64,000 bases of DNA from IMG/VR virus record IMGVR_UViG_3300036766_000678, positions 116,417-180,416 of that record; one strand, 5' to 3'. Position 1 is the first letter of the stretch; every line of letters starts with the position of its first letter. This stretch comes from a virus. The position numbers and the translations under genes were made by a program. Positions 1,114 to 36,574 of this stretch are shown in pieces. The notes under the pieces are model-generated. The model had not been told where the DNA came from and did not search any database. It was given only the letters and a program-made list of their open reading frames with translations.

Positions 1114-4100
1114 TTATTTTTTAGGTACATCATTAATTGTCTTATGTTTTAATGTGCCCATACTTCTAAAAATATTTCCAACTTCGTCATGATCACTAGG
1201 ATCATAAGTCAAATAAGGGACACGAGTGGCTTTCTTCTCATTAACTGTAGAAGAGGGCATTGGAAGTTCTTCAATAGCTTTTTCCATGGCCTTTAACGCC
1301 ATATCATCGAAGGCAAGTAATTCTTTATGCTTGGCCTTAATTGCATGAGTCATAGCTTTATGACGAGCATCTAATAGATAAGTACCAGATTTAAGTTCAC
1401 TATCTAGTACATCTGGGCTCAATTGAAGAACATTTTTGTCAACCATATTAGCAACAATTTTCTGGCATCGTTCAGAACGTGCAGAAAGAATAGCAGCAAA
1501 TTTCTTTGCTTTCTCTTCCTCTTGAGCCTTAACTTCAATAGCTTTTAGTTCGGCCTCTTTCTTAGAAATAGCTTCCTCACGAGTTTTAAGAGCAGATTCT
1601 TTCATACCCATTTCATCTTCATGAGCTTCTTCAAGTGCGGGATGCTCTTCAACTTTAGGAGCCTCTTCCATCTTAGGAGCTTCTGGCATAGCGGGAGCCA
1701 TCTCAGGCTTTTTTTCCTCAACTGGAGGAAGACCAAGAACAGCTTTCATAAGCTTAAGCACTTCACCAACTTCTTTACCAAAACCATCTGGCAATCTTTT
1801 AACTTCCTTGCCATCTTTCTCAATAATAACTTCTTTAGATTCTTTGTCCTTATGAGCAGAGTATCCTTCACCAATATCAAGTTTATCTGCTTTATCAAAT
1901 GCAGAAACTTCTTCTTTAGGAGTATCACCAGGGAGAGCTAAATTCTCAGTTTCGTGCTCAGGAACTCCAGCAGGTTTCTCTTCAACCTTAACATCATCAA
2001 CTAAAGGATCTGCGTGTTCAGGTGTAGGAGGCATTTCAGTTGCAGCAGATTTATTAACAGCCACATCTGGCTCTTTTGTAAGATTAGGAGTAGTATGTTC
2101 TGTTTTACCTTTAACAGCTTCATCAGGCTTGCTAGAGGGATTAGAAGAAGGTTCCTTTTTATCCTTTACTGCTTGATCTGGTTCCTTAGTTAAATTAGGT
2201 GTCTTATTTACTTTATCCCCATCAACACTTGTTTCAGGAGTAGCAGATTTGCCTTCTTCTGGTAAAGTTGTACCCTTAACAGATTCATCTGGTTTTGCAT
2301 CAAATTTTTTCGTACCTTCTGGTAAAGTAGATCCATCAACTGCTTCTGTTGGTTTATCAGCTGCTTTCTTTTCCATAATAGTCTCCTGAGATGATTTCTT
2401 TGGAACATCCATACCCTTTTCTCTAGCTTCAGAATAGGCTGCTGCTACCGCTTGGGCTCGTTCCATTCCATCTTCTTTAATATGTTTTTCTACATGCTTC
2501 TTAATAAATTCTTGTGCTTCGGGTGTCATTGAAGACCACTTAATTTGTGCATTAGCTTCTTTATAATTAACAGAGGCTTTCTTTTCATCAACTAATTTGC
2601 AAGGTTTACCATTCATACTATGTCGTCCATATTCCAGCATCTCACCACATTCGGGACATTTTGTTGCTGCTTCTTTTTTAGAACCCTTCTCTTCAGCTTC
2701 CATTTCCTCAGTTCCCTTAGCTACATAAGAAGTTTCAACCTCTTTCTCTGATTTCTCCAGTTTCTTCTCTTCTGGATTCTTAGGAGTAGTGGTAACTTCT
2801 TTACCTTCAGCTTCAGGCTTAGGTTCTGAATAATCTGTTTTTACTTCTTTTGCTTTAGGGGCGGCAGGTCCTGTTTGACCCTTTTCCTGCCCTGGCATTT
2901 TAAATTGTGGATCAGTCTTAGCATCTGTACCTGCTGGTGCTGCTGGACCTTTTTGAGCTTGTTCCTGTCCTGGTTTTGTTACTGGGGAATTTTTAACATT
3001 GTGTTCTTTATTATTTGTGCCAGTAGAAGGTTTTGCATAACTACCATCAGGTCCTAGTTCTGGACCTTTTGCGGTTTTATTTAATTTATGTGTTACATCC
3101 CATAAATCAGCCAATTTCTCAATTCCTTCTTTAGTATAACGAGCAACAACCTCTTTACCATATGCTTCACTGGTTGCCCATTTCTGATCATCAAAAGAAA
3201 GTGTTTCAAATGTACTACCCCAAATATCTTTAAGAGAAGCATCTAATAGGCACTTAGCATCTTCATACACTGACCAAGTAGAAGCAAGTACATTATTTTT
3301 ATCTTCATTAAATTTGGCTGAGATGGAAGATTTCTTATCTTTTTTCTTCCCATAATCACATGTTACACACGTAACTTCATCCCCCACTTTACGGGCAGCA
3401 ACACTATCACAGTTTGGACATTTGACAAATTCTGTTTTAGCTGTTTCTTTTCCCAATTCCTCTTTAGCCACTGCTTCAACTTTCTTTTCCAATAATTGAG
3501 CAGCAAAGCTATCTTTTACTTTAGCCACAATTCTAGATAGAAATGTTTCTTCTTTCTTAGTGGCATCAGCAACCACTTCTTTATTAACTACTTCGTTAGC
3601 TTTCTTGGTTTTATGCTGAATATAGCTCTCAAGTTGCTCCATTTCTAGGGCGGAAATTTTTGATAAAATCTTTTTTTGATCTTCGGATACAATATTCTTA
3701 TCTGACATGGATGACTCCTTGGATGATTCTTGTGCTTCTTTATCAGTAGTTGGGCAAATTCCGCAGAACTCAGCCTTCAAATTTTTTGCTGTCTCTGAAT
3801 CTACTTTAGTTAAAAGACCTTCAAATTGTTTTACAAAATCTTGTTGCTCATCTTTAGAAAGAGCGGCGGTTTTCGAAAGTCTGCTTCTCATATTGCTTAA
3901 AATTGTTTTCACAATCGCTTTAGGGTCTGCGGGAATTCCAACCAAAGACAATTCATTGAATGCAATCCCACTATTTAAAGACATGGCTTTAACTTTTTGA
4001 CCTTTAGAAATGTTATACTTAAGATTATCAACTTCAGCATCAAACTCATGTCCCAAAGAAAATGCTTCAAGATGTTTACAACGTGGATCAGCATCTGAAT

Positions 4101-5820
4101 GAAGAACCAAACCACACACGCTACACGCACTTTCATCAACGGAACAATTGTGAACAGCAACACCATTAACAAGATAAGAATTTTTCTCTTTAACACTAAA
4201 ATTATAGACAAGTAATTTTTGATCTTCTACTTCAATACCACTAATTGGGATCATTAAATAATTATTTACTAAAAGTTTCTGTTGTTTATTACCACCTACA
4301 GGCAAACCAGTAGGAATCTTATCACAATATTTTGCCATTTCATGTAATGATTCCCCTGAAATACAAATTCTATATGTTCTAGAGGCAGCAATTGTTTTAG
4401 TGCCACTTTTAAAATTAGCTATTTTTTCTTTATAATGCTTTTCTTCTAATGCAAAAAGAAGAGAAGCACGACAAAATAACCATGCCATCTGATAAATAAA
4501 AGCTTGGGAAGCAGTTTCCAAATAGGCACGTCTAATATGGGGATGAGCATCTTTTCTATTTATCTCTTCATAATCGCTATAGCAGCCATCCCCGCAAAGA
4601 AATGCTCCTAGAAGTTCTTTTTGGAATTCAATATTCCATAAAAGAACAGAGGGATCAAGCTTTTTAGTTTTAGCTTTTTCTCCACCTAATTGCATTAATT
4701 TTTCTGCCAGTTCTTTATCATATATAAAAATACGGCAAGCATTTAATTTTGGATATTTCTTTATAGTTACTTTCTTTTTAGTAATAGAGCTAATAAGGGT
4801 TTTAATCTCTTTAGCATATTTGGCTTCTTTTATATGCAAAGTAAACATTGCTCCACCAACTAAATTGCAACGACAAATCTTATTTACTTTTCTACATGGG
4901 TAACATTTATAATAAATAATATTGCCCTCTGCAAGATACCAACCTAAAAGACGTGCAAACTCTTTAGTTATATTATCGGGGGTTTTTTCTTCTTTAGAAA
5001 AGGGAAAAGATACATAATCCCCTGGACGAAGATTCTCAGCAGATATCCACTCAAAATATTTAGCATTACTGGCTATTTTTTCTAGGGATTGCCCAGTAAT
5101 ACTATGCCCTGCCTCAACTAAAGAGACAGAATTTAAAATATTAATTATGTTCTCTTTTTTTATGCTCCAAAAAGGATGTTCATTTGTGGCAGTAATAGGA
5201 AGTTTTGTAAATCCTAAAAGTTTTAAAGTATACATTAACCCGTCATAAGGTCTAATCATTGTTTCAATTACTTCATCAGAAAGACCTAAATGATTTAAAA
5301 CTTTATCCCCTACTTTGATATCTTCGATATTTTTAAAGGTATGATCGGATAGTAAAATTTGGGTCCCTTCTTTAAAACAACCCATACTCACCGTGTTCAA
5401 AATACCAGTTTGAACTTGCCTCGCTAGTTCAGGAAATAAATATTTATCGAGCTTCGCTAATACTTCAATATATTTCTCACCAGTCTCTGGATCTTCAACA
5501 GGATATGAGTCGATGAGTCTGCCCACGGCTTTCAAAACCGAATCAGCCGAATGGTCTATGTACAATCCCTTTCCTTGAAAAGAAGCATAACTTTTTAAAA
5601 GATCATCCCAACCAAACGCATCCCAATTGCCGTTAGCTCCATTTGTTTCATAACTTGAAATTGCACGAGCCCTCAGATACAAAAACTGTTCGTTTTTAGG
5701 TTCAATGATATGTGAAGATCCTGGAACCTTTTCTTCCATAGGACGATCAATCAATAATTCTTCCACTGCTGCGGCAGTTTTTAAAATCTTCCATGAAGAA
5801 CCAATTTTTTGTAATGACAT
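1114..5820 (-). CDS. Prohead protease (HK97-like) fused to a long scaffold region, intein-containing
   Basis: GKGLYIDH and TVSMG|CSVDESACSVCG protease-like motifs; long acidic/Pro-rich and coiled-coil C-terminus; position in the head module downstream of portal. Confidence 0.8.
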   Translation of the reverse strand: MSLQKIGSSWKILKTAAAVEELLIDRPMEEKVPGSSHIIEPKNEQFLYLRARAISSYETNGANGNWDAFGWDDLLKSYASFQGKGLYIDHSADSVLKAVGRLIDSYPVEDPETGEKYIEVLAKLDKYLFPELARQVQTGILNTVSMGCFKEGTQILLSDHTFKNIEDIKVGDKVLNHLGLSDEVIETMIRPYDGLMYTLKLLGFTKLPITATNEHPFWSIKKENIINILNSVSLVEAGHSITGQSLEKIASNAKYFEWISAENLRPGDYVSFPFSKEEKTPDNITKEFARLLGWYLAEGNIIYYKCYPCRKVNKICRCNLVGGAMFTLHIKEAKYAKEIKTLISSITKKKVTIKKYPKLNACRIFIYDKELAEKLMQLGGEKAKTKKLDPSVLLWNIEFQKELLGAFLCGDGCYSDYEEINRKDAHPHIRRAYLETASQAFIYQMAWLFCRASLLFALEEKHYKEKIANFKSGTKTIAASRTYRICISGESLHEMAKYCDKIPTGLPVGGNKQQKLLVNNYLMIPISGIEVEDQKLLVYNFSVKEKNSYLVNGVAVHNCSVDESACSVCGLVLHSDADPRCKHLEAFSLGHEFDAEVDNLKYNISKGQKVKAMSLNSGIAFNELSLVGIPADPKAIVKTILSNMRSRLSKTAALSKDEQQDFVKQFEGLLTKVDSETAKNLKAEFCGICPTTDKEAQESSKESSMSDKNIVSEDQKKILSKISALEMEQLESYIQHKTKKANEVVNKEVVADATKKEETFLSRIVAKVKDSFAAQLLEKKVEAVAKEELGKETAKTEFVKCPNCDSVAARKVGDEVTCVTCDYGKKKDKKSSISAKFNEDKNNVLASTWSVYEDAKCLLDASLKDIWGSTFETLSFDDQKWATSEAYGKEVVARYTKEGIEKLADLWDVTHKLNKTAKGPELGPDGSYAKPSTGTNNKEHNVKNSPVTKPGQEQAQKGPAAPAGTDAKTDPQFKMPGQEKGQTGPAAPKAKEVKTDYSEPKPEAEGKEVTTTPKNPEEKKLEKSEKEVETSYVAKGTEEMEAEEKGSKKEAATKCPECGEMLEYGRHSMNGKPCKLVDEKKASVNYKEANAQIKWSSMTPEAQEFIKKHVEKHIKEDGMERAQAVAAAYSEAREKGMDVPKKSSQETIMEKKAADKPTEAVDGSTLPEGTKKFDAKPDESVKGTTLPEEGKSATPETSVDGDKVNKTPNLTKEPDQAVKDKKEPSSNPSSKPDEAVKGKTEHTTPNLTKEPDVAVNKSAATEMPPTPEHADPLVDDVKVEEKPAGVPEHETENLALPGDTPKEEVSAFDKADKLDIGEGYSAHKDKESKEVIIEKDGKEVKRLPDGFGKEVGEVLKLMKAVLGLPPVEEKKPEMAPAMPEAPKMEEAPKVEEHPALEEAHEDEMGMKESALKTREEAISKKEAELKAIEVKAQEEEKAKKFAAILSARSERCQKIVANMVDKNVLQLSPDVLDSELKSGTYLLDARHKAMTHAIKAKHKELLAFDDMALKAMEKAIEELPMPSSTVNEKKATRVPYLTYDPSDHDEVGNIFRSMGTLKHKTINDVPKK
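4147..5379 (-). mobile_element. LAGLIDADG intein (411 aa) in the prohead protease
   Basis: Starts CFKEGTQILL, block B ATNEHPF, LAGLIDADG-like LLGWYLAEG and LLGAFLCGDG, ends AVHN followed by Cys(+1). Confidence 0.92.
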
Positions 5821-5822
5821 AA

Positions 5823-6473
5823 TTATTCCTCAACAATTCCCTTAAGCAAATTTCGAGCCTTATTCAAACTTGTTTCAACATTAAAATTCTTGATTTCATC
5901 CCATTCTTCATCTGTCAATTCTTTCTTAGGAGGTATTGCTTCCTCAGTAACATCGTGTAAAGAAGGCTGCTCTGGGATTTGTTCCCATTCTTTTTTAGGA
6001 ACATATTGATATTTTTTCTTTGGTTCTAAAGGAACATTAACTTGTTTTGGTTTTTGAACAGGTGCTTGCCTAACTCGTTTAGGAGCAACAGGAGTCTTTG
6101 TTTTTGGTGCATATTGTGGTGTTGAAATACTTGTGTCGGTGTTTCCATATGAATCAACACGAACATCAGACAAGTTTGGGCCAGAGACAATCAATGTACA
6201 ATTAATATCGCCTGGATGCGATTTTTCGAATAAGGGGGCCGAAAAATTTAAACCCCCTACAAAATCTTCTATATTCCACTTTTGACGATTTAGATCGACG
6301 CAACGTGAGTGCCTAGACGCGCCTGAGTCCCATTCTACAATCTGATACCCCTGGGAAGCTAAATCTTCCAATACTGGTAAGGACATATCCTGACGAGTAT
6401 TTCCTACAGCCTGTTTATTTAGCCTGTTTATTTTTTGAGCTTTTTCGGCTAGTTTTTCTTCCCAATTGGTCAT
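5823..6473 (-). CDS. MuF-like minor head protein
   Basis: W...C..L...APLFEKSHPGDINC resembles the MuF C-terminal HPxCxC region; lies between portal and protease. Confidence 0.4.
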   Translation of the reverse strand: MTNWEEKLAEKAQKINRLNKQAVGNTRQDMSLPVLEDLASQGYQIVEWDSGASRHSRCVDLNRQKWNIEDFVGGLNFSAPLFEKSHPGDINCTLIVSGPNLSDVRVDSYGNTDTSISTPQYAPKTKTPVAPKRVRQAPVQKPKQVNVPLEPKKKYQYVPKKEWEQIPEQPSLHDVTEEAIPPKKELTDEEWDEIKNFNVETSLNKARNLLKGIVEE

Positions 6474-7161: not shown

Positions 7162-7200
7162 CTTATCTTATCCTTTTAATTAAGTTAAATGACTAAAAAA

Positions 7201-7513: not shown

Positions 7514-7514
7514 A

Positions 7515-8410: not shown

Positions 8411-8624
8411 AACACCATTCCAAATACTCTAAATTATCTGATGGGATATATCTCAAACAAATACATCTATTAGTTCGACAAATTCTCCCCAAATATTCAC
8501 TATCTCTATGTTGATAATTTAGACAAGAAGTATTTTTAGAAGTATGCCAACTAGGAGAACATTTGCACGTCTTGCAAACACTATTAAAACGCTGATGGAT
8601 CTTTACTTCTTTCTTTTTTATCAT
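8379..8624 (-). CDS. Small Cys/His protein with DNLxYLE tag
   Basis: CKTCKC...CICLRYIPSDNLEYLEWCY. Confidence 0.75.
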   Translation of the reverse strand: MIKKKEVKIHQRFNSVCKTCKCSPSWHTSKNTSCLNYQHRDSEYLGRICRTNRCICLRYIPSDNLEYLEWCYERKESTSSL

Positions 8625-8928: not shown

Positions 8929-9118
8929 TTATCTCTCCTTTTCGTTTCTTATCATATAAGTATTCTAGGTATTCTAAGTTATTTCTAGGTTCATAACCTA
9001 AACACTCAGAAGCACCATTTAAAAGTTTTGGGCAATAACAATGTATTGGAACATACTCACTCTCAGAATTTCCATAATAATGTAAACAATTACAATTTCT
9101 ACATGTACTTAAAAACAT
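8921..9118 (-). CDS. Small Cys/His protein with DNLxYLE tag
   Basis: CRNCNCLH...CLGYEPRNNLEYLEYLY. Confidence 0.75.
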   Translation of the reverse strand: MFLSTCRNCNCLHYYGNSESEYVPIHCYCPKLLNGASECLGYEPRNNLEYLEYLYDKKRKGEINV

Positions 9119-12100
9119 TATCTTTCAGGTGCGGCCAACTCAACAGCTCCGCCTTCGGGAGCTTCTACCATTTCTGGTGTTGCTCCAACTTCTCCTGGTA
9201 CTTCTTCACCTACTCCTTCTGCACCTTCTTCTCCAGGTTCAATTGGTTCTATAGGTTCTACTGGTTCGGGCATTTCCCCACCCATTCCACCCCCACCGGC
9301 ACCTACTTCTCCACCGCCAGAAGGTTTACTAATTTTTGCGGGTATACGATCTTTCCCACCACCCTTATCAAAAATAGTACCTCTTTCTTGTTCAAGATTT
9401 TGTCTTTCAGTTTCAAAATCAAGCTCAGGAAATTTAGCGAAAAGAGTCTTTGTAGAAATAAGGCCCTTATCATGAAGATCCATCATTCTGTCTTTTTCCG
9501 CATCTTCATCTTCAATATCCAAAGATTTATACCAAGAGATCTGTGGGAGAATTAATTCTTTTTTACCAGTAGCAGGATCAACAGTATAAAAATTATTCTT
9601 TTCTGCAATAGGTCTAAAGAAATGGTTTATCATCCAATCTTCAAATTTATCTCTTACGGTTTTATATTGCATAACAAGGGCATGTAATGCCATTGTTTTG
9701 CTATTACCAAAATTGGGGCCTTCTCCTAAGATAACGTTCTTGTTCACACCCATACCAACAAGCAATTGATCTTGAATGTAATCATATTCAGCATTAAGAG
9801 GAAATTGTTTTCCCATAACACTTAATGGTTCATATTTAACAATGGGGGGAGCAAAAATACTAAATGGGGGATTCTGAATAGATTGATTAATTAAATTTTT
9901 CCAGTTACTAATATCCTGCTCACTTGGCATAGTATTGGAAGCTAAATCTCCAATAGTCCACAACTCTTTTGGGAACACATAATTTTGTGCGTAAGCGGAT
10001 TGAGCGAGACGTATCCAGTCCTGAAGTATGAGGGCCTTAAATAAACAGTTGTGAACGAACACACCACAATCCAAAGCAAAGTTGTGAAAATTTCCAACAG
10101 ATTTAATATCATATAATTCTTCTGCTGGTAAAATTTCTATGGATAAAACCTTATGGTTAAGTCTTTTTTTCTCTGCTACTTGTTTTTGTTTTTCAGCAGC
10201 ATTTTTTCTAAATTCAGGAGAACGACGAATAGCTAATATTTTTGCAACATATTCTGGATCTTGCCAACGACGTTTCATTGACTCACCTTGTACAAGAAAA
10301 GAGCCATTCTCATTCTTTGTTTGTGCTATTTTAGCTTTTACTTCAGGACGTTGCTGCACAATTTTTTGAGTTTCAGAAGTTTTCTTTCTATATTCAGGAT
10401 CTGCTTTGCTTATACGCATGGCAGTAACAGCATTATTCCTATATTCTTCAGTTTCCCAAAGTTCTTTTAATCTTTCTGATTGAATTTCATGCCGTTCTTC
10501 TTTTTCCCACGACCTAATTACCCCAGCAGTTAGATTTTTTATAAAATCTGGATTCTGTCTAGCTTTTTCAACTAATGCTTTGTGTAATTTTATATGATCC
10601 TTTCTGGATAAGACCAATAAATTTTCAGGTGTATTATCTGTTTTATGAAAATTTTGATGATGAACAATATCCTTTTTACTAACTGCCCCATTAATAAAAT
10701 CGGCTACCACACGATGAGTATATTTCCAAGCATCATCGGCTGGATTATAGATAAGTTCATAGCCAGTAATAGTTCTGCTTTCTTCCCCAAGTTTACTAAT
10801 TTTGGAATATAAAGGCATCAAACTTTCACCCACAGAAAGAAATTCAGCATTTTTATAAGATCCATCTCTAAGCACAATAGGGTGTTCCTTAGAACATTTA
10901 ATATAATTCCCACTATCTAAAGTTATCTTATAAACTATATCTTTTTTGGTGAAAACAACTTCGTCTGCACGTCCTGGAACAATACTATTATTTTTATCAA
11001 TACTATAAACCCAAAAATTCTTTCTTTTTAGGTCAAAAAGTTCTTTCAAAGTTGGGGAAGTCCCATCCAACAAACGAATCTTTGTATCTCCCGTTAAACA
11101 CTGTATGGGACTTGTCCCCCTCGTAGCAGAGGGGTCTGTAAGATCGGCAATCATCGACGTACAATTCTCATCTAGCTTAATATTTCGATGATCATTAATT
11201 GCATTAACAAGTTCTGGAGAAGACTCTTTTAATTTTTCTACTCTCTCCTGATCTTCGGGACGAGTGGAAGATACTAATGCTTTAAGTTCTTCCGTTGGAA
11301 TTAATTCAAAAGTTTGAGTACCCGTAAGCATATCTGTTTTAATTTCAACAAGTTCTGGTTCCAATAACACAAAATTTGCCCAGCGATACAGTTTCTCTTC
11401 ACCTTTTGGATTTTCAACATCCTGAGTCATATTTCCAAAACAAATAGCTTCACCAAATTTGTTATAAGAGATACTAGCTCTTAAAATATAGGAGAGAAGA
11501 TTGAAATGCTGATTTGAACACATCTCTTCATAAAATTTCTTTACAGAAACATCTTGGACAACTAAATCAAATTTGGAAAATGGATAGGCTGCATGTAAAT
11601 TTGTAATACGTTTTACATACGGTTCCAAATTATAGAATATACGACAGTTATGAGTGGTAAATGGAACATTAATTGTATGATCTTCTGTAGTTACACAACA
11701 AAAATCTTTATCCGTATCAAATACTTCTACCCCAGTAACAGGAAAATAGAAGTATTGGTCATCTTCAAAATACATAACTTCTGTATTTTCATTTGAATAA
11801 CTCCCAGGATAAATTTTATTAACATTTTCCCCAGAAATACCTAATGTATATGCAAAAGGTGCCACAGATTTCATCTGGATTTTAGATTTCTTATTTATAT
11901 AAGCTAAATCTTGTTCTCTTTGTCTAAACCAGACAGGTACTCCAACTTGATTAAAAAGAAGATGACCTTTATAGGCTAAAGATTGAGAAACAGTACATAC
12001 GGACATAGCAGGTCGTGAAGGAGTAATATTTTTAACTGTTCCATCTCCCCTTACCCATCCTCGTAAAAAAGAAAGAACTAAATTGTTTTCTAACTCAAAC

Positions 12101-13107
12101 AACCACATAGGAATATCTTTAATATTTGATCCGGTATTAAAATACTGCACAACAAATTCAGCTAACACAGAACTATTAACAAATAAACGAATACTTCCAT
12201 TGTGTGGGCCAATATGAATTTTATGTTCTGGTATATGAAATTCTGTAATTAAAGTTTCTTTTAAAGCTTTTGCTATATTTTCCTCGTCATGAGATAGAGT
12301 TAAAGTAATAGCATTTTTATGTCCTTCGCTATCAGCAACATGACCTTCTGCAATATACCAACCCAAAAATTCTAATACCTTATTTGTAAGTGGTAAAAAT
12401 CTTGGCATACTATATGCTACATCTCTACTTACAACTTCTAAAGAATTCTCAGAAGGCGTAACAATTTTAACTCGTCCTTTATGTAACTTATAAATTGAAC
12501 GTTCTTTTAAAGTAGGAACATACAAATCAATTTTAGGTGCTTCAGTAGAAGAAAATTTAATTTTTGGACAAGCTACTAAATCCCCCTCTTGAAGAAGATT
12601 TGCATCAATCCAAGTTAATTTTTCTTTCGGAGTAACAAAACCAAAGCGTATAGCATCTCGTAACGTTCTATGTTGACCTTTAGCTTGAATCCCAAGTACA
12701 GGATGATAGGAAGCCATTTCTACAGGAGGACAATATTTAATTGTAAGTTTAACTGCGCTGGAGTCTGCTTTCTTACGTTGAATATCTAAAACTTTTTGCC
12801 AAATACCTTTTCTTGATAAAACTAAATCTCCTATCTTTACATCAGAAATTTTCTTGTATACACCATTACACAAAATTTCTTGATCTTCGAGAATGGGCCA
12901 TTTAAGGATTTCTTGACGTGATTTGGGAAGAAGCCACGATTCACTCGTCAGCTCAGGTGAATAGAAAAAACTATTTGTTTGTGTGACTTGATACTCTCCC
13001 TCTTTCAAAAGAGAAGCTTCTTTCTTCACTCCAGTTAAACTCTGAGGTGCTGTGAAATTTGCTTGTGGAGTTCCTTTCTTTGGTATGCCTTTTCCTTTTC
13101 GTGCCAT
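9118..13107 (-). CDS. Portal protein with two inteins (561 aa after splicing)
   Basis: Spliced sequence RQEILKW|CRIFYNLEP...GTSPIQ|CLFKALILQD...GEGPNFGNS; directly downstream of terL; acidic Gly/Pro tail. Confidence 0.8.
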   Translation of the reverse strand: MARKGKGIPKKGTPQANFTAPQSLTGVKKEASLLKEGEYQVTQTNSFFYSPELTSESWLLPKSRQEILKWPILEDQEILCNGVYKKISDVKIGDLVLSRKGIWQKVLDIQRKKADSSAVKLTIKYCPPVEMASYHPVLGIQAKGQHRTLRDAIRFGFVTPKEKLTWIDANLLQEGDLVACPKIKFSSTEAPKIDLYVPTLKERSIYKLHKGRVKIVTPSENSLEVVSRDVAYSMPRFLPLTNKVLEFLGWYIAEGHVADSEGHKNAITLTLSHDEENIAKALKETLITEFHIPEHKIHIGPHNGSIRLFVNSSVLAEFVVQYFNTGSNIKDIPMWLFELENNLVLSFLRGWVRGDGTVKNITPSRPAMSVCTVSQSLAYKGHLLFNQVGVPVWFRQREQDLAYINKKSKIQMKSVAPFAYTLGISGENVNKIYPGSYSNENTEVMYFEDDQYFYFPVTGVEVFDTDKDFCCVTTEDHTINVPFTTHNCRIFYNLEPYVKRITNLHAAYPFSKFDLVVQDVSVKKFYEEMCSNQHFNLLSYILRASISYNKFGEAICFGNMTQDVENPKGEEKLYRWANFVLLEPELVEIKTDMLTGTQTFELIPTEELKALVSSTRPEDQERVEKLKESSPELVNAINDHRNIKLDENCTSMIADLTDPSATRGTSPIQCLTGDTKIRLLDGTSPTLKELFDLKRKNFWVYSIDKNNSIVPGRADEVVFTKKDIVYKITLDSGNYIKCSKEHPIVLRDGSYKNAEFLSVGESLMPLYSKISKLGEESRTITGYELIYNPADDAWKYTHRVVADFINGAVSKKDIVHHQNFHKTDNTPENLLVLSRKDHIKLHKALVEKARQNPDFIKNLTAGVIRSWEKEERHEIQSERLKELWETEEYRNNAVTAMRISKADPEYRKKTSETQKIVQQRPEVKAKIAQTKNENGSFLVQGESMKRRWQDPEYVAKILAIRRSPEFRKNAAEKQKQVAEKKRLNHKVLSIEILPAEELYDIKSVGNFHNFALDCGVFVHNCLFKALILQDWIRLAQSAYAQNYVFPKELWTIGDLASNTMPSEQDISNWKNLINQSIQNPPFSIFAPPIVKYEPLSVMGKQFPLNAEYDYIQDQLLVGMGVNKNVILGEGPNFGNSKTMALHALVMQYKTVRDKFEDWMINHFFRPIAEKNNFYTVDPATGKKELILPQISWYKSLDIEDEDAEKDRMMDLHDKGLISTKTLFAKFPELDFETERQNLEQERGTIFDKGGGKDRIPAKISKPSGGGEVGAGGGGMGGEMPEPVEPIEPIEPGEEGAEGVGEEVPGEVGATPEMVEAPEGGAVELAAPER
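10048..11100 (-). mobile_element. HNH-type intein (351 aa), portal intein 2
   Basis: CLTGDTKIRLLDG...CSKEHPI; HNH core YTHRVV...VHHQNFHKTDNTPENL; ends FVHN followed by Cys(+1). Confidence 0.92.
11647..12897 (-). mobile_element. LAGLIDADG intein (417 aa) with Pro at position 1, portal intein 1
   Basis: PILEDQEIL...ASYHPV; FLGWYIAEG and FLRGWVRGDG; block F FCCVTTEDH; ends TTHN followed by Cys(+1). Confidence 0.8.
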
Positions 13108-13430: not shown

Positions 13431-15074
13431 TTATGGCCTATCCTTAAGGTACTTGCTCTGGAGAGGGTTCTGTTGCCCAGGCATTGGAATATGCCGCCCA
13501 TGTAAATTAGAAATCCCCGCTTGAGGGGAAGCCATAGAACTAATAGACTTAGAAATCTTATCAGAGTGTGCTTTCATTTGGTCGGCGGCCCAGATTCCTA
13601 GCACGTTGGACATCGTGAAATCGTCGTGTCCCATAGAAGTATCTACAAAAATTTGGTCATTAATTCCAGCTCTACTCTTGTGCCGTTCCAATAAGCACCA
13701 TTGAGAAAATCCTTCTCGAAATAGTTTATTATTCTCAATTTTATCCATTGTCGGATATTGAACTCTACCACTATCAAGCTCAAATATAAACTGATCTACC
13801 ATGGCATTTTTATAATTTTTCTTCGTAATAGGTTCAGAAGCATTAAAAGTTATTCCAGCTATTGGAATCTTTTCTTTCTGGAACATTTCAACAATACTTA
13901 TTGCAATATTACTATAATCAGCAAGACCAAAAACACACTTAAAAACACCTGTTTCTGGATGAATAATCTGTTTTATTTCTTCCATCTGTTCTACCACATT
14001 TCCCTGCCAAGAAAATTGAGCCACACATTGTTTAATGTTATCATGTGTCTTACGCCAAATTGAAAGAACAGTGAAGTCTAAATCTTTTTTACCAGGAAGA
14101 AGAGTACCACTAGCCGTATCCAATCCGAAATAATATTTTTCAGTAAGTTGGGGACGGCCTTCTTCAAGGACATCAAAATCGCCAGATATTAAAAGTTTTT
14201 GCTGTTCAGCAGAAAGTACAAGATTGATATCTTCCATCCATATCATCTCGTACTGAGTATTCCATTCAACTTCTGAATAACCTTCTACGCTGTCATAGTG
14301 CAGTAATGGATCGTTGGGGAAATATTTCTGTTTGACAGTACGAGGCATCAAATCTACAATACGTTTGGGGTATTCGTTACCTTCGTATAATATAGAACCC
14401 TGTTGCCAATAAATATCACATTCTCTCCAATTCTTTTTTAATACTTTATATTTTGTATTTGGGGAGTTACAACTTTGAAAAAAATTGTTCTTATAAAGAG
14501 AAATTCCAACCTTGATTGTTTTTGCAACAGAAAAACTACCAAGCATTGGAACAAGTTTCTCACGTACAACCCAGTCACTTACTCTCTGCGCTTCGTCGAT
14601 TAAAATTAGCATAAAATGCTCTGATTCCTGGGTTGCCGTTTCGGAAGCAGACAAAGCTTTTATCGTTGAACCATTCTTAAATGTGACTAGAGAATTGGAG
14701 GTTTTGTTCCAATCAATATCATTATAAACAGACGAAGAAGGAGTAAGAATACGCCCAATAATATCTTCTTTTACTAACCGTTTAGAGGTTTCACCTTTAG
14801 GACCAAAAATACCAATTCGGAAACCTGGGTTATCCAAACAAACTTTTACAAGAGCAATAGCGGCGGCATAAGTTTTTCCAGAGCCGCGAGAAGCTAAGAT
14901 AGCCAAATAGGGGAGACTTAAATTTGTTATATCATTAATAATGGAAATCTGATTGTCATACAAGTCAATATTAAGATTAGTAAGTGCCCAATAACTGGGG
15001 TCAACGGCAGCTTTATTAAGCGTAGGAAATCGGATAGAGAGTTCATTTTCTACAAGAGAGTCGAAGCGATTCAT
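13431..15074 (-). CDS. terL: Terminase large subunit
   Basis: Walker A ASRGSGKT, Walker B LILIDEAQ, RNase H-like nuclease motif YFGLDTASG and C-terminal HDD. Confidence 0.9.
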   Translation of the reverse strand: MNRFDSLVENELSIRFPTLNKAAVDPSYWALTNLNIDLYDNQISIINDITNLSLPYLAILASRGSGKTYAAAIALVKVCLDNPGFRIGIFGPKGETSKRLVKEDIIGRILTPSSSVYNDIDWNKTSNSLVTFKNGSTIKALSASETATQESEHFMLILIDEAQRVSDWVVREKLVPMLGSFSVAKTIKVGISLYKNNFFQSCNSPNTKYKVLKKNWRECDIYWQQGSILYEGNEYPKRIVDLMPRTVKQKYFPNDPLLHYDSVEGYSEVEWNTQYEMIWMEDINLVLSAEQQKLLISGDFDVLEEGRPQLTEKYYFGLDTASGTLLPGKKDLDFTVLSIWRKTHDNIKQCVAQFSWQGNVVEQMEEIKQIIHPETGVFKCVFGLADYSNIAISIVEMFQKEKIPIAGITFNASEPITKKNYKNAMVDQFIFELDSGRVQYPTMDKIENNKLFREGFSQWCLLERHKSRAGINDQIFVDTSMGHDDFTMSNVLGIWAADQMKAHSDKISKSISSMASPQAGISNLHGRHIPMPGQQNPLQSKYLKDRP

Positions 15075-32557: not shown

Positions 32558-33534
32558 TATTTGTTTAAATCCCTCTTATCTGGTTCACTCCATTGACTCA
32601 TATATTCACTATTTCCAGGTTTACCATCTGAACTATAAGAAGCCCTATCATTTGGTGGAGTAAAATCCAACGCCACAAGCCTTTCAGTTCCACTTGGATG
32701 ATCTATCATGTCTGCTTCTTTACCAAATTTCTCAGCAATAGATTGTTCAAGATCTTTAATCTTTTGTTCAAGACGTGCAACCTCAACATGGTTGTGCCTA
32801 TCAAGTGCTGCTTTATGATCGTCTTTTAAATCTTTTAACATATCTATATAATTAGACTTGAGATCAGATGTTTTTTGAGGTTTACACTCAGGGCAATAAA
32901 CAGATTTATCTTCCCAACAAGGGCAATGTTCTGGTTTAGATTCTTCAGCAGAATGCTTCACTAAATCTGCCTGATAATAACCACCCGCAACATCTCTGTC
33001 TTTGAGCATTCCACTATCCCAAAACACGTACACAAGTCCAGCGGGGTTCTCCTCACTTGCGTCACAACGAATAACACGCCCAAGAGATTCAGATCCTCTT
33101 GCTGGTTTAACAACATCATCTTGTTTGAAACTTATAATAGCTGGACCTAATTTCTTTTCTACATTTTTAACAACTTCTTTTTTCTTAGTGTGGTCCATTG
33201 GTTTATATTCTTTATCCTTAAGAACTTCAGGCCAATTAGTTCCTGTTTCGGGCAATAAATCGGCAGATTCTTTATTTACTTCAGTTTCAGAAGTTTCTTT
33301 ACTACTTTCCACAGTTTCTTTAGTTTCTTCAGGTGCTGTTTCATTTTTAATCTCCTGTTTTAATTTTTTACGATCTTCTTTCTTTTTCTTGGCTTTCTCA
33401 TAATGGGCTTCGGCAGTTTCAATAGCATCTAAAGTCTCTTTATAACCTTTAGGATCTTTAGAAGGAGTAAGCTTTTTCAAACTTTTTTTAAGTTCCTGTA
33501 ATTGCGTGTAGATTCCCGAAATTTTTTCAAGCAT
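32557..33534 (-). CDS. Charged mosaic protein, probable virion protein
   Basis: MLEKISG leader; NKESA, QKTSD, GKEAD sites. Confidence 0.45.
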   Translation of the reverse strand: MLEKISGIYTQLQELKKSLKKLTPSKDPKGYKETLDAIETAEAHYEKAKKKKEDRKKLKQEIKNETAPEETKETVESSKETSETEVNKESADLLPETGTNWPEVLKDKEYKPMDHTKKKEVVKNVEKKLGPAIISFKQDDVVKPARGSESLGRVIRCDASEENPAGLVYVFWDSGMLKDRDVAGGYYQADLVKHSAEESKPEHCPCWEDKSVYCPECKPQKTSDLKSNYIDMLKDLKDDHKAALDRHNHVEVARLEQKIKDLEQSIAEKFGKEADMIDHPSGTERLVALDFTPPNDRASYSSDGKPGNSEYMSQWSEPDKRDLNK

Positions 33535-33549
33535 ATTTTTATCCTCTTA

Positions 33550-33750: not shown

Positions 33751-33768
33751 GGGAATATACCTGCTATT

Positions 33769-35034
33769 TTATAGTTGTGTCCAAGCACCACTTACTCTAG
33801 CATAAATTCCAGGGGTATTGTCTGTTTGATAAATCATCAAACCATCAGCAGGAGTAGCTATTGCATTTCTTTCTGTCATTGTCATACGAGGCGGGAGAAA
33901 TCCCTGTGTAGTTGATGTTATATCAAGAATAGCTGAGGTATTTGGAGTACTTGTGTTAATACCGATATTCCCCGCTGCTTTCATATACAATAAACCATTT
34001 GGGCCACTTCCTGAAGTTAATTGTAAATCTACTATGGAAGTCAAAGTTCCAATACTTGTGCCAAAATTATAATTAAGAGAAAGTCCTTCAATAGTAACAT
34101 CATTATTAGCAAAGGTCAGAAAAGTATTTCCTGAAGCTACACCAGTTGAAATAATAGAAATTGCAGATAAGGCTTGTACTTTACTATTAATTAAACTAAA
34201 TGTTCCAGAAGGAATAGCACCAACACCTAATTTTGAATTAGCACTATCAAAAATAAAATTAGCGGAGGCACCAAATGCTCCAGAATTATTAAATTGAACT
34301 TGAGTATTAGCTCCAGCTGCATTTATTACTGGAGTAGTCATTGAAAGCCAATTTGTAGATATACCTGTTAATGTTGCATTTGAGAAAGTAACTTGTGGTA
34401 TACCAACATTTCCACCTTGTGTATTTATTGTAACTCGAATATTTGTTGCTGTTAGTGAAATTACTCCAGCAACAGGAGTAACAGGACCCCCATTAGAAGC
34501 ACCACCAGAATAAGTATTTGTCCCATCAAACATTGTTAAACCAATAGTTGGAATAGACCCACCTGGATAAGCAACGTTAACAGTAAAACTAACGGTTTGT
34601 CCTCTATATTGAGTAGCTGGAATATCTTGGTAAAAAGCACAATTATTAAGTACAAAGGCAGTACGAGCAACAGCAAAAACTGGATTAGGACCAGCTGATG
34701 GGTAACGTGCATATTCTGGAGCACCAAACTGAGTAGGACTTGCATACCAATGATCTGCTAATTGTGTATTTGGTGCTGGACTTTGAAAATCTGTTCCTTG
34801 ATTCCAGGCAGAAAAATCTCCATTAAGAAGTCCTGCTGGAGCACCAATATATACTTCTGGCTCACCTATAGTTGTATTATAAATCTGCATACCCGCTAAA
34901 GGACTACTAATTGCGTCTCTTTGAGTTGTATCTAATCTAGGAAAAAGTAATCCACTAGATGTGGAATTTGAAGTGATTGACCCTTCTGTGGTGATACTTC
35001 CATCTGTACTATTTACTGAATAAAGTGAGCCCAT
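33769..35034 (-). CDS. Fibre/surface-type structural protein
   Basis: Gly/Ser/Thr/Asn-rich beta-like sequence; two copies of a G[LF]LxPR[LM]...R[DN]AI..P..G[ML]xIY module, at the N- and C-termini. Confidence 0.55.
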
Positions 35035-35065
35035 AATATTTTACCTTTTGATATATTTGATATGA

Positions 35066-36574
35066 TTATTTCTTTTGGAGTTCTTTTTCCAAATCTTCTT
35101 CGGACTCTTTCATGTTGGTGGGAATGTTATCTACTCTGGCGATACTTTCAATTCCTGTAGCTGGATCGGTTACAATTTTCCAGGGGCTCTGCACTTCCGC
35201 AGACTTATTTAGTTCAGCTACTTTAGCAATTACTTCTGCTTTAGAAGCATGAGATTGAATTTCTGGTTGTGCCTTTGCATAAGATATTCCACAAGCTTCA
35301 CAAGACATATTATCTTTGACTCCGTTAGAAAGATCCCGACCCTCTGATCCACATACGGGGCAACTACCACAATGAGATTCAGTTTTTAGAGAAGATTCTG
35401 CAAATTTAGAAGTAAAATGTTCAGCAATCTCAACCCAATCAACTTCTGCCAATGCCCAATTAATCATATCATCCCATAAAGATGCACCGAGATCTGGTTT
35501 AGCTTCCTCAACCAAATTCTTTAATGATTCTGCTAATTGATTTGGATCTTGAATTGTCTGGGCCATTTCAGCAGAAACTGCATTAAGTCCCTGATCATTA
35601 TCAAGCCACAATGCAACTTGCCATGTCTCAGAATTTTTCCAGCCCTGATAATCCGCTTTCTTATTTAAATTAGCATTTACGAACATTTTGGGTGTATCGA
35701 AACGACAAATTGTATAACTTTTGCCATTTGCGGTTATAATAAATCTTTCACCTTCTGTAGCAGTAATTTCATAATCTCCACCAGCACTTAAAATTGTGCC
35801 TTCTTTTGACATCACACTCCTGGCGAGAGTTATCTTGTTTCCTATTTTTAACTCGTCTGGATCTCTCACTAGAAAAGCATCTACTTTTAAAGAGGCTTTC
35901 TTATCCTGTGGTTCACCTGGTTGCTTTGTCACGTCTTGCCTTTCCTCAGCTTCACGACCATTACCTGCACCAGCTTGGGTTGTCTTCTCTTTGTCAGAGA
36001 TAACGAAATCTTTATCTTTGGCTTCTTTTCCTTCCCAATTCTGCTTACCTGTTTCTGGCTTAGCCCCAGAAAAAATATCCTTTTCTTTAGGTTCTTCTGG
36101 CTTAGCTTCTTTAGTGTACTTATCAAAAGATTTTTGCCAATCTAACTGGGCAGACATTCCAACGTGTTCGAGAACTTCCTTCTCGCACTTCTCACGACTA
36201 GAGGCCACATCACGCTTCGCCTTTTCTTTTAACTCGACAGCCATTTCTGGGAGGTTTTGAGCTTTCTCTCCCCTAATATTCATTAGCCATTCTGCGAGAG
36301 CATAATCACTCAAGATCTTAACACTTTTTTCATAATCTTTCTTAAGAGTATCTTCAACAGTATCAAAAGAGGAATATGCAGCCGTTTTCCCCAAAGCTTT
36401 TGCTTCTGCTTCTAGATTAGCATTGTATTCTTTGTCAACTTGATCTGCATCAATTTTCATTGATTCTTGAAGCCACGTACTGGCTTTAACCTTTTTATCA
36501 AATTCAGTCTGAGCATCAGTCTGCTCTGCTTCAATCTCAATCTTATTATTCAAAAATTTATTAAGCCATTCCAT
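35066..36574 (-). CDS. Mosaic protein, probable virion cargo
   Basis: GKTAAY, DKKAS, NKKAD, NKSAE sites; module YQGWKNSETWQVALWLDND; zinc ribbon. Confidence 0.5.
   Translation of the reverse strand: MEWLNKFLNNKIEIEAEQTDAQTEFDKKVKASTWLQESMKIDADQVDKEYNANLEAEAKALGKTAAYSSFDTVEDTLKKDYEKSVKILSDYALAEWLMNIRGEKAQNLPEMAVELKEKAKRDVASSREKCEKEVLEHVGMSAQLDWQKSFDKYTKEAKPEEPKEKDIFSGAKPETGKQNWEGKEAKDKDFVISDKEKTTQAGAGNGREAEERQDVTKQPGEPQDKKASLKVDAFLVRDPDELKIGNKITLARSVMSKEGTILSAGGDYEITATEGERFIITANGKSYTICRFDTPKMFVNANLNKKADYQGWKNSETWQVALWLDNDQGLNAVSAEMAQTIQDPNQLAESLKNLVEEAKPDLGASLWDDMINWALAEVDWVEIAEHFTSKFAESSLKTESHCGSCPVCGSEGRDLSNGVKDNMSCEACGISYAKAQPEIQSHASKAEVIAKVAELNKSAEVQSPWKIVTDPATGIESIARVDNIPTNMKESEEDLEKELQKK

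Follow-up and report, generated by a model that had tools for sequence, protein, structure and literature searches.

The window, the whole 64,000-nt stretch of DNA analysed here, derives from an uncultured, 180-kb relative of Bacillus phage G. It encodes a protease-scaffold fusion (ORF 1114), ORF 5823, a portal with two inteins, the large terminase and, just upstream of the terminase, seven large modular proteins; such multi-domain proteins span about 19 kb in this phage (Table 1). ORF 1114 opens with an assemblin-fold protease (His90, Ser145) made up of residues 1-147 and 559 to about 645. The remainder is a long scaffold, rich in K, E, A and P, which has zinc-ribbon modules inserted into it and ends in a conserved tail of 37 aa. 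An intein begins two residues past the catalytic Ser145 (VSMG/C...HN/C) and is missing from all nine relatives, which have an unbroken SMG-CSVDES there. One intein-free relative, L006, matched phrog_18299 'head maturation protease' (5.4e-13), and its AF2 model (pLDDT above 90 across residues 40-240) showed structural matches to T4 gp21 (Z 10.7) and to herpesvirus proteases, the assemblins (Z 7-9.7). The His is invariant and the Ser near-invariant across the protease family, and the domain has a conserved Cys cluster (C164, C167 and C179, L006 numbering). The portal matched phrog_16240 (4.7e-27), and ORF 5823 gave a weak match to phrog_11785 'minor head protein'.

No peptidase domain was detected in the seven modular ORFs. 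ORF 21893 comprises an unnamed N-terminal domain, a repeated KYWI-P-GK domain, a HAD-like hydrolase, a 2H phosphoesterase and a C-terminal region, with matches to Pfam 2_5_RNA_ligase2 (4.1e-9) and phrog_1238 (2.6e-17) and a weak Hydrolase match. The Pfam DUF7249 match of ORF 35066 begins at the Ala of NKKA/ (residue 307).

Table 1. Genes and candidate sites in window coordinates; the slash within a site marks the presumed cut.
Feature	Position	Strand	Sites or parts	Basis
ORF 1114, protease-scaffold fusion, 1568 aa	1114..5820	(-)		profile match, AF2 model of L006, alignment with 9 relatives
ORF 1114 intein with homing-endonuclease region, residues 148-558	4147..5379	(-)		Pfam Intein_splicing and Hom_end_hint
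ORF 1114, N-terminal candidate site of protease	5773..5781	(-)	ILKTA/AAV, K14-A16	conservation
ORF 1114, release-site analogue	3865..3873	(-)	RLSKTA/ALS, K650-A652	position after fold, conservation
ORF 1114, internal scaffold candidate sites	2044..3606	(-)	KTKKA/N 3598-3606; KLNKTA/K 3070-3078; GSKKEA/A 2668-2676; DEKKA/S 2575-2583; MEKKA/A 2362-2370; AVNKSA/A 2044-2052	conservation in relatives
ORF 1114, scaffold zinc-ribbon insert	2583-2668			
ORF 1114, C-terminal candidate site (maturation-site analogue)	1228..1236	(-)		conserved distance from C-terminus
ORF 5823, 216 aa, beside scaffold gene	5823..6473	(-)	N-terminal RLNKQA/V 6408-6416	relatives
Trypsin-like protease with lipoprotein signal peptide	7515-8180			
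Portal with two inteins	9118..13107	(-)	N-terminal GVKKEA/SLL 13015-13023	profile match
Portal inteins	about 11647-12870 and 10048-11100			intein, HNH and LAGLIDADG matches
Large terminase, negative control	13431..15074	(-)	TLNKAA/V 15012-15020 (rejected)	
ORF 16508, modular, 917 aa	16508..19261	(-)	LIKES/E 19217-19225; EQKQA/T 18557-18565; EKES/A 18176-18184; DKTA/L 18107-18115; SLKEA/A 17723-17731; IKQA/D 17423-17431; LKTA/E 17219-17227; EKQA/A 17105-17113; VQKEA/S 16574-16582	breakpoints, conserved sites
ORF 19288, 534 aa	19288..20892	(-)	ITKTA/EFPGGPCKGCG 20272-20280; IEKVA/T 19546-19554	
ORF 21893, multi-enzyme, 1281 aa	21893..25738	(-)	VNKLA/S 24827-24835; SKIA/G 24446-24454; SKFA/S 24128-24136; EKKA/SL 23759-23767; IDKNA/A 22748-22756; EKIA/G 22196-22204; FSKKE copies 23339-23353, 22553-22567	Pfam/phrog matches, breakpoints
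ORF 27850, 682 aa	27850..29898	(-)	N-terminal MHKFSKKDIKA/DLKEY 29866-29889; ISKKELKKKA/D 28477-28485; FSKKELNIVKNA/E 28072-28107	L003 homologue
ORF 29904, chain of small modules, 639 aa	29904..31823	(-)	YKKEA/Y 31731-31739; TEKNA/RGCDQC 30765-30773; SLNKVA/IIVEENGKW 30636-30644; FSKKEA/LVNPHACD 30471-30488; LPKEA/G 30315-30323	conserved sites, AF2 model
ORF 32557, 325 aa	32557..33534	(-)	MLEKIS/G 33517-33525; VNKES/A 33265-33273; FGKEA/D 32713-32721	
ORF 35066, 502 aa	35066..36574	(-)	LGKTA/A 36380-36388; DKKA/SL 35894-35902; NLNKKA/DYQGW 35654-35662; ELNKSA/E 35198-35206	Pfam DUF7249, conserved sites, breakpoints
ClpP-like protease	37583-38245			

A sequence-only reading of this DNA had proposed that K-x-A or K-x-S sites (K.A, K.S) punctuate eight ORFs, namely ORF 1114 and the seven modular ORFs, and every peptide it quoted was found in the ORF named. 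K.A occurred 74 times in these ORFs against 52.9 expected from a composition-matched control (z 3.2). The excess is not explained by a Lys-rich background, as it survived 20- or 40-residue local shuffles with the intein removed (69 versus about 50, z 3.1-3.3). The K.S half of the rule did not stand (z 0.9-1.5), and the controls A.K and K.E were likewise not enriched in the eight ORFs. The form [LIVMF].K.A, which emerged also from distant homologues of the protease, was found 29 times versus 11.3 (p 8e-6). Its excess was confined to the named ORFs, with 6 versus 5.7 in other ORFs of the region and 62 versus 50.9 in the remaining genome. An unbiased k-mer scan returned FSKKE (4 versus 0.02) and LNK.A (6 versus 0.27) as top cysteine-free motifs; 5/6 and 6/7 of their genome-wide copies, respectively, lie inside the flagged region (21% of the residues). 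Moreover, an N-terminal motif is present in 7/10 head or cargo ORFs versus 9/151 others (p 2e-6).

The K.A excess was much stronger in relatives from uncultured phages. Sixteen cargo-like proteins on five other contigs contained 190 K.A versus 103, 83 [LIVMF].K.A versus 23.4 and 63 K.A[SA] versus 14.8 (z 9-13); under local shuffles K.A gave z 9.3-9.5, and the unbiased scan ranked L.K.A (42 versus 6.9, p 2e-19) and K.AS (37 versus 6.9) as top cysteine-free motifs. Nine further homologues of ORF 16508 contained 141 K.A versus 82.5. Homologues of the terminase and DeoC showed no enrichment of [LIVMF].K.A (2 versus 4.7).

The fuller motif reads [L/I/V/M/F or S]-x-K-x-A followed by S or A, often with L; thus the presumed P5 is hydrophobic or Ser, and P1' is Ser or Ala. 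With regard to the Lys-x-Ala specificity previously suggested, Ala is indeed the conserved core at the presumed P1, yet Lys is only preferred at P3, where V-T-A, I-T-A and R-x-A variants occur. The rule is looser than first put forward, because the phage's own major capsid protein carries KLNVTA/S near its N-terminus, with no Lys at P3, and three FSKKE copies continue with I, V or L rather than Ala. Roughly half of single K-x-A instances are background, and helical K/E/A-rich scaffolds in general are mildly enriched for K.A, with K.E scoring higher. The terminase TLNKAA/V was rejected as a chance copy since its Lys is not conserved, relatives having NQAA, IQAA or AELA there.

Codons of the motif vary synonymously, Ser alternating between TCN and AGY and the Lys, Leu and Phe codons differing too; selection on the motif therefore operates on the protein sequence. 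Among relatives of about 35-55% identity the motif is conserved, and many sites are fully conserved despite a flank identity of only 0.3-0.45. Joint conservation of the pair was 0.46 for K.A versus 0.29 for K.E, 0.29 for K.S and 0.20 for K.K. Conserved copies inside folded domains (QKWATSE and EKLADLW in ORF 1114, KFA at residue 207 of ORF 29904) are probably structural.

The proposed placement at module boundaries was supported: of 53 internal homology breakpoints, 15 have a K.A no more than 6 residues away (6.7 expected, p 0.002), a test of only moderate strength in which K.A came second of 127 motifs. Comparing ORF 16508 with L013-L016, breakpoints at about 359, 513, 601, 668-688 and 713 coincide with candidate sites. 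Its N-terminal site is widely conserved, a C-terminal SSLNKEA/S stands 21-24 aa before the end in 8/9 further homologues, and in L014 a module of ~80 aa is duplicated in tandem with SSLKVA/S preceding each copy. In ORF 21893, breakpoints 304, 427, 538, 647, 797 and 995 fall at candidate sites; in ORF 35066, sites 63 and 457 are conserved and breakpoints 218, 296 and 396 adjoin sites. The site at residue 447 of ORF 19288 is kept in both relatives at a flank identity of 0.34, and the L013 and L014 homologues of this ORF carry the RGCDQC zinc-ribbon module of ORF 29904 after PVIEK[IV]A/. Sites 351, 394 and 449 of ORF 29904 are conserved in every aligned relative and lie in low-pLDDT linkers or at their borders; 8/11 of its sites are in or beside low-confidence stretches versus a 46% baseline, a weak test given the poor AF2 model. 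Its modules are reordered and differently fused in the 1003-aa L001 and 1334-aa L003 proteins, the former being fused to the homologue of ORF 32557, whose N-terminus reads MLEKFA/G in L001 and MIDKLA/G in L003. The L003 homologue of ORF 27850 begins MKFSKKA/DLKEY and also has FSKKELHKQA/R. The motif thus flanks modules whose presence, copy number or order differs between relatives, and, with sites of its own on either side, a module could be inserted, duplicated or swapped from gene to gene without upsetting the processing.

We also searched the protease-scaffold family (2164 members) for the motif. The N-terminal K-x-A/S of the protease is kept in 5/5 aligned relatives and many distant members, and falls where the model has low pLDDT (residues 1-34). 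K650-A652 stands 17-18 residues past the VPAD motif that closes the fold; the form [ST]K[KT][AG][SA]L is conserved here in relatives, and the L006 equivalent (K247-A249) lies in a low-pLDDT linker (241-251). Among 108 diverse family representatives, 73 have K.A 12-40 aa past the PAD motif, the offset being 16-18 in 49 cases. At the other end, [KR][KR]A/[STN] occurs 33-37 aa before the C-terminus in all full-length relatives, and K.A 22-50 aa from the C-terminus in 54/119 representatives, the commonest a.b motif there. Most internal scaffold sites are kept in 83-100% of relatives at a flanking identity of 0.3-0.6. The scaffold zinc-ribbon insert is flanked by KKEA/ and KKA/S, and at that position L011 and L012 have other inserts that are likewise bracketed by the motif (three different inserts in total). 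ORF 5823 has RL[NT]K[EQ][AS] in 4/4 relatives, and portal relatives carry GLGKTA/SLDKTA/G or EKTA/SIN at the same place despite differing preceding sequence. Its presence at the protease boundary, the scaffold tail and the N-termini of the portal and major capsid protein ties the motif to head maturation.

Taken together, these data suggest that the conserved hydrophobic-x-Lys-x-Ala tag most likely marks where a capsid-maturation protease cuts, both in capsid proteins and at the joints of modular proteins. Our best explanation as a whole, which we hold to be probable, is that [hydrophobic or Ser]-x-Lys-x-Ala followed by Ser or Ala (often Leu) is the site recognised and cleaved by the phage's own enzyme. 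The earlier interpretation is partly supported: the motif is real, module-bracketing and selected at the protein level, but the K-x-S half falls away. We hypothesise that the Ser/His protease, made whole by intein splicing, would release itself within the procapsid at the site just past its fold, which corresponds to the release site of herpesviruses. It would then cut the scaffold to pieces and drop the 37-residue, presumably capsid-binding tail at the analogue of the maturation site. The portal, the major capsid protein and ORF 5823 would next be trimmed, each losing a short peptide from its N-terminus. Lastly, the seven modular proteins would be split, presumably after Ala, into domains including zinc ribbons, a 2H phosphoesterase, a HAD-type hydrolase and DUF7249, and the freed domains may be retained in the head and pass into the host along with the DNA.

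This scheme resembles that of herpesvirus pUL26. The two have a common fold and the same order of parts (protease, end-of-fold site, scaffold, and a site 33-37 residues before the C-terminus), and in both the motif core is Ala followed by Ser, Thr or Ala. In pseudorabies virus (PrV) pUL26 the predicted R- and M-sites would both be cut after Ala (YLQA-T and VQA-S), the latter cut removing 37 residues (PMC4498786). However, the phage motif favours Lys at P3 and hydrophobic residues at P5, its candidate sites are far more numerous and reach separate large modular proteins, and the phage protease is intein-interrupted with a conserved Cys cluster.

The T4 head protease, gp21, whose fold is common to the phage enzyme, cuts after Glu at L/I-x-E. 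In T4, phiKZ, 201phi2-1 and SPN3US, one morphogenetic protease of this fold cuts many head proteins at a three-residue motif, after Glu (A-X-E) in SPN3US; substrates include the protease itself, portal, capsid protein and ejected internal proteins, with N-terminal propeptides removed and several sites per protein possible (PMC10052503). In contrast to those enzymes, which cut after Glu, the conserved residue here is Ala with Lys two positions upstream, and sites go beyond N-terminal propeptides to flank interchangeable modules within long chains. Similar long chains of unrelated enzymatic domains are known as polyvalent proteins of phages and conjugative elements (Iyer, Burroughs, Anand, de Souza and Aravind 2017; PMC5512222). 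Their genes sit among late or virion genes; the proteins are believed to be packaged and delivered with DNA, and a peptidase processes them into units, while the 2H phosphoesterase domain is listed as specific to phage-type members (PMC5512222). They have a built-in peptidase, usually a zincin-like MPTase and rarely a C-terminal assemblin-like domain (PMC5512222), whereas here the capsid protease would act in trans, at an explicit motif conserved in the linkers.

Alternatively, the motif could be a real linear signal that is never cut, a docking or capsid-targeting peptide or linker cap bound by scaffold, portal or inner shell, bringing each module into the procapsid or spacing domains. Enrichment, conservation and border placement would suit a binding motif equally well, the N-terminal copies look like capsid-targeting sequences, and the extra FSKKE upstream of some sites is more docking-like than scissile. 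We nonetheless think this unlikely, as the copies after the fold and 33-37 aa from the C-terminus match herpesvirus cleavage sites (PMC4498786) and Ala-then-Ser is a typical small-residue scissile pair. Moreover, targeting and cutting are not mutually exclusive, since head-targeting peptides of T4 and phiKZ-type phages terminate in the protease cleavage motif (PMC10052503).

Less likely still is cutting by another enzyme, be it the ClpP-like, the trypsin-like or a host protease. Both phage genes are kept in relatives in the same gene block, and the motif Lys could fit a trypsin-like pocket. However, it is Ala, not Lys, that is most conserved, P3 being variable as described; the trypsin-like protein should act outside the cytoplasm because of its export signal, and ClpP degrades processively with no cutting at defined sites. 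The fixed places of the motif in an assemblin-fold family of more than 2000 members suggest self-processing instead. Finally, that the pattern is a functionless by-product of Lys/Ala-rich composition, helical linkers and shared ancestry is highly improbable: Lys content is 9-13%, the K.A excess in the window is only 1.4-fold and related sequences swell conservation counts, but the excess outlasts local shuffling in window and relatives alike, is absent for reversed A.K, for K.E and in other Lys-rich ORFs of the genome, and the sites outlast flank divergence and reappear on both sides of unrelated inserts.

The closest cultured relative is Bacillus phage G (terminase 29.6% and protease domain 33.8% identical), whose gp1 terminase, gp14 portal, gp19 protease and gp7 we compared. 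Its protease, for which PMC12484599 reports no cleavage motif, differs in being a separate 300-aa protein without the long scaffold fusion. N-terminal K-x-A was not found in the phage G major capsid protein and K.A[SAG] is absent from its terminase, but the bias recurs in its other proteins compared here, K.A[SAG] being over-represented with 8 copies versus 1.5 in gp7, 4 versus 0.5 in gp19 and 3 versus 0.5 in gp14.

The window is the final 64 kb of one 180,416-bp contig and every gene in it lies on the minus strand. ORFs are named here by their start coordinate, and the flagged stretch is listed below in order of transcription. The genes for seven large modular, cargo-like proteins lie directly upstream of the terminase gene, and downstream of ORF 1114, the protease-scaffold fusion, come the gene for a 157-aa protein and then the major capsid gene (match to phrog_2522, 1e-33), which starts 231 nt past the window edge. 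The order terminase, portal, ..., ORF 1114, 157-aa protein, major capsid protein is common to the window and three contigs of other uncultured phages (L006, L008 and L010). As is expected of a prohead protease, the gene lies between those for the portal and the major capsid protein and is joined to a scaffold. Among cultured phages Bacillus phage G is the closest, at identities of 29.6% (terminase) and 33.8% (protease domain); ORF 16508 had no match among cultured phages by tblastn and ORF 21893 had none in a scan of viral contigs.

Features of the flagged stretch in order of transcription; the Lys-poor 421-aa protein, the DeoC-like protein and HNH-type endonuclease genes, four in all, are interspersed with the modular genes
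Feature	Position (nt)	Strand	Remark
ClpP-like protease	37583-38245	-	just upstream of the modular genes
Modular protein, ORF 35066	35066	-	
Lys-poor 421-aa protein	33769-35034	-	
Modular protein, ORF 32557	32557	-	
Endonuclease-like gene	31748-32557	-	
Modular protein, ORF 29904	29904-31823	-	FSKK[E/D]
Modular protein, ORF 27850	27850-29898	-	FSKK[E/D]
DeoC-like protein	26196-27290	-	
Modular protein, ORF 21893	21893-25738	-	FSKK[E/D]
Endonuclease-like gene	21000-21884	-	different HNH type
Modular protein, ORF 19288	19288	-	
Modular protein, ORF 16508	16508	-	
Endonuclease-like gene	15643-16500	-	
Large terminase	13431	-	
Portal	9118-13107	-	inteins at ~11647-12870 and 10048-11100
Small Thr/Asn-rich protein	8584-8928	-	
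Trypsin-like protease	7515-8180	-	lipoprotein-type signal
216-aa protein, ORF 5823	5823	-	
Protease-scaffold fusion, ORF 1114	1114-5820	-	1568 aa; intein at 4147-5379
Endonuclease-like gene	545-1111	-	

The sequence-only reading had proposed that K-x-[A/S] is a cleavage code in ORF 1114 and the seven modular proteins, and all of the peptides quoted for it are present. Over these eight ORFs the Ala form stood up, K.A (Lys-x-Ala) occurring 74 times against 52.9 expected from composition-preserving shuffles (z 3.2). Roughly half of the K-x-A occurrences are background, and some that are conserved lie within folded domains. The excess persists when shuffling is confined to blocks of 20 or 40 residues (z 3.1-3.3), and under the same block shuffles A.K and K.E show none. 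K.S is not enriched, and Ser was dropped from the rule, a few conserved sites with Ser (KES↓A, KIS↓G; arrows mark presumed cut positions) aside. When all short gapped patterns were scanned without bias, FSKKE (4 against 0.02) and LNK.A (6 against 0.27) headed the cysteine-free motifs, and nearly all copies of both genome-wide fall inside the flagged region.

The signal is much stronger in relatives, which were recovered from scans of viral contigs and protein libraries at identities of 35-60%. Five other contigs supplied 16 cargo-like proteins, in which K.A occurs 190 times against 103, [LIVMF].K.A 83 against 23.4 and K.A[SA] 63 against 14.8, with K.S, K.E and A.K flat in the same proteins; nine more homologues of ORF 16508 hold 141 K.A against 82.5. 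Terminase and DeoC homologues and the other ORFs of the relatives' contigs showed no excess. In an unbiased scan of the relatives L.K.A (p 2e-19), K.AS, K.A, S.K.A, K.ASL and SLK.A came next after zinc-ribbon CxxC patterns. The logo reads hydrophobic or Ser at -4, Asn/Leu at -3, Lys at -2, Gln/Thr/Val/Glu at -1, Ala at 0, Ser/Ala/Asp at +1 and Leu at +2, and a Cys often follows the motif by six residues, at the start of the next zinc ribbon. An origin at the DNA level, as a repeat or slippery A-run, was rejected, since the motif codons vary synonymously, including switches between TCN and AGY for Ser, and selection thus acts on the peptide.

The claim that the sites fall at module boundaries found moderate support in local alignments of window proteins against differently built relatives. 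Of 53 internal breakpoints, 15 lie at most 6 residues from a K.A against 6.7 expected (p 0.002), ranking the motif second among 127. Breakpoints of ORF 16508 at about 359, 513, 601, 668-688 and 713 fall on KES↓A, KEA↓, KQA↓, KTA↓ and KQA↓. At one position in the ORF 1114 scaffold, the window and two relatives (L011 and L012) carry three different inserts, each with KKEA↓ or DKKA↓ before it and KKA↓S after it. In a relative of ORF 16508 (L014:5986-10314, plus strand) an ~80-residue module is duplicated in tandem at residues ~440-620, with SSLKVA↓S before each copy, and in ORF 35066 the Pfam DUF7249 match starts at the Ala of NLNKKA↓. Joint conservation of the residue pair is 0.46 for K.A, 0.29 for K.E or K.S and 0.20 for K.K, and many sites are fully conserved despite flanks that are only 30-45% identical. 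Three fully conserved sites of ORF 29904 are placed in linkers or at domain edges by an AF2 model, which with a mean pLDDT of 54.6 is a weak test of boundaries.

The motif also recurs near the N-termini of several proteins: GVKKEA↓SLL in the portal (GLGKTA↓SLDKTA↓G in that of L006), ILKTA↓A in ORF 1114, RLNKQA↓V in ORF 5823 (RL[NT]K[EQ][AS] in all relatives) and further copies in several modular proteins. The major capsid protein of relatives reads MNDINKEA↓ALEVLSS, and that of this genome KLNVTA↓SSEVLSS, without the Lys. Hydrophobic-x-K-x-A/S occurs within the first 32 residues of 7/10 head or cargo ORFs against 9/151 other ORFs (p 2e-6, a post hoc comparison). LNKAA in the terminase was set aside as a chance copy, its Lys being conserved in no relative, which fits a protein that never enters the procapsid. 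The same K-x-A bias is found in gp7, gp14 and gp19 of phage G, which makes the cleavage hypothesis testable in a cultured phage; the published account of that phage gives no cleavage sites (PMC12484599).

We next consider the enzyme. Neither the protease domain nor its profile gave a meaningful match in sequence searches of the PDB, and only the fold search succeeded. The intein-free domain matches a PHROG head-maturation protease (5.4e-13). An AF2 model of residues 1-280 of L006, whose protease lacks the intein, has pLDDT > 90 over 40-240, and VIA-align superimposes it on T4 gp21 (5jbl) with Z 10.7 and rmsd 2.6 over 129 aligned residues and on six herpesvirus proteases with Z 7-9.7; the best Foldseek matches are all assemblins. 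The modelled domain thus has the fold characteristic of prohead proteases and assemblins (T4 gp21, HK97 gp4, herpesvirus assemblin). In an alignment of 20 sequences His99 is invariant and Ser154 nearly so (L006 numbering), corresponding to the putative catalytic His90 and Ser145 of ORF 1114. The latter protein carries an intein of 411 residues (148-558) with an endonuclease region, inserted two residues after the putative catalytic Ser (VS145MG). The intein is absent from all nine relatives found, which read SMG-CSVDES, and the ORF 1114 protease would become active only once the intein is spliced out. The portal too is interrupted, by a pair of inteins whose endonuclease signatures are LAGLIDADG in one and HNH in the other; together they add ~750 residues, and the 580-aa L006 portal has neither.

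The protease family comprises 2164 members at E < 1e-3 among 1.8 billion cluster representatives, mostly long protease-scaffold fusions. Plain tripeptide enrichment over these was rejected as unspecific, K.E and E.K scoring above K.A, and therefore a positional analysis was needed. In 73 of 108 diverse members a K.A follows the fold-closing VPAD motif by 12-40 residues, 49 of these at an offset of 16-18. These sites give the logo [L/M/I]-x-K-x-A-[S]-[L], and some exceptions read K-x-G; in the L006 model this site lies in a disordered linker (241-251). A second K/R-x-A stands 33-37 residues from the C-terminus, directly before a conserved tail, in all close full-length relatives, and across the family no a.b motif is commoner than K.A at 22-50 residues from the C-terminus. 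Variants near the C-terminus (V-T-A↓S, V-Q-A↓E) indicate that Ala is the most constant residue. In ORF 1114 the two sites are K650-T-A652, 17-18 aa past VPAD, and K1529-K-A1531, 37 aa from the end; relatives conserve both, and both are common family-wide. By sequence, then, the family has candidate release and maturation sites in the architecture of herpesvirus pUL26, where the R-site frees the protease and a predicted M-site removes 37 C-terminal residues in PrV (PMC4498786). The tail removed from PrV pUL26 holds the scaffold to the capsid protein, and the predicted sites are YLQA-T and VQA-S (PMC4498786).

The simplest reading of these sequence patterns is that this protease clade cleaves at hydrophobic-x-K-x-A↓S/A. 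Cleavage motifs of the T4/phiKZ type end in Glu (L/I-x-E, A/S/G-x-E), whereas the candidate motif here has Ala as its last residue and Lys at -2; no x-E motif was prominent in unbiased scans of window ORFs or relatives, and K.E was not enriched. Phage head proteases of known, mapped specificity (T4, phiKZ, SPN3US) cut after Glu. In the giant phages phiKZ, 201phi2-1 and SPN3US up to 19 head proteins are processed, after Glu in A-X-E (PMC10052503).

Among the domains of the modular proteins are 2H phosphoesterase, HAD-like hydrolase and DUF7249, besides many zinc ribbons, ORF 21893 alone combining 2H phosphoesterase and HAD-like domains with other regions; a low-molecular-weight phosphatase (1.7e-25) and a YacG-like zinc finger occur in relatives. 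In content they resemble polyvalent proteins, in which at least two unrelated effector-type domains share one polypeptide of a late or virion gene (Iyer et al. 2017, PMC5512222). However, a polyvalent protein contains its own processing peptidase (an MPTase, or an assemblin-like domain at the C-terminus), whereas neither the seven modular ORFs nor their relatives matched any peptidase family and the protease is N-terminal on ORF 1114. Here the capsid protease would act in trans, on an explicit linker motif.

On this reading all seven modular proteins would be substrates of the capsid protease and, if cut by it, would be inside the procapsid when it acts; cutting, packaging and injection are inferred steps. 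Tentatively, and with less than even confidence, we propose that a clade of tailed-phage capsid proteases with >2000 members, phage G and cluster-C-like mycobacteriophages among them, has in common with herpesvirus assemblin its fold, Ala↓Ser cutting and release/maturation layout, and that in the sub-lineage of this phage the site has become a general rule, by which any module bearing hydrophobic-x-K-x-A↓S on its flanks can join head-gene polyproteins, be loaded into the capsid, freed and delivered. If so, ~19 kb of cargo genes would be freely recombinable, and the shuffling of zinc-ribbon and enzyme modules among head-associated proteins without loss of processing would be explained. A Lys-x-Ala↓Ser code in the phage G lineage would give this one fold a second specificity, resembling that of herpesviruses, and the parallel between phages and herpesviruses would reach beyond the fold to the substrate rule and precursor layout. 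Mature termini and capsid cargo would then be predictable from sequence alone in many uncultured large phages.

Several further features of the region were observed. The FSKK[E/D] pentapeptide has five copies in the three ORFs marked in the table, each with an Ala within the next 1-8 residues, and one elsewhere in the genome; it may be an upstream recognition element for a subset of sites. Two further proteases are encoded in the vicinity. The ClpP-family protease (Pfam 1.6e-24) is conserved in two relatives (L001 and L003), and phage G also encodes ClpP, which is found in its particles (PMC12484599). The trypsin-like serine protease (Trypsin_2, 1e-23) is conserved in relatives, and in L006 and L010 its gene stands between those for portal and scaffold; one would not expect an exported protease within a head-assembly block. 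The small Thr/Asn-rich protein, ending in ...CKEY.P.DNLEYLE.L..., is kept at the same position in relatives (L006:3528-3833; L010:2158-2514).

Three of the four free-standing endonuclease-like genes between the head genes share repeated C-x-x-GHD zinc motifs and a common C-terminal region, and similar genes occupy other places in relatives. The 421-aa protein had no family match; it contains 0.7% Lys and 1.4% Glu, is rich in Ser/Thr/Gly/Asn/Ala among neighbours with 9-15% Lys, and resembles a fibre or surface protein. Lastly, the DeoC-like aldolase is extended at its C-terminus by ~130 residues, including a zinc ribbon, that the 237-aa homologue of L001 lacks.
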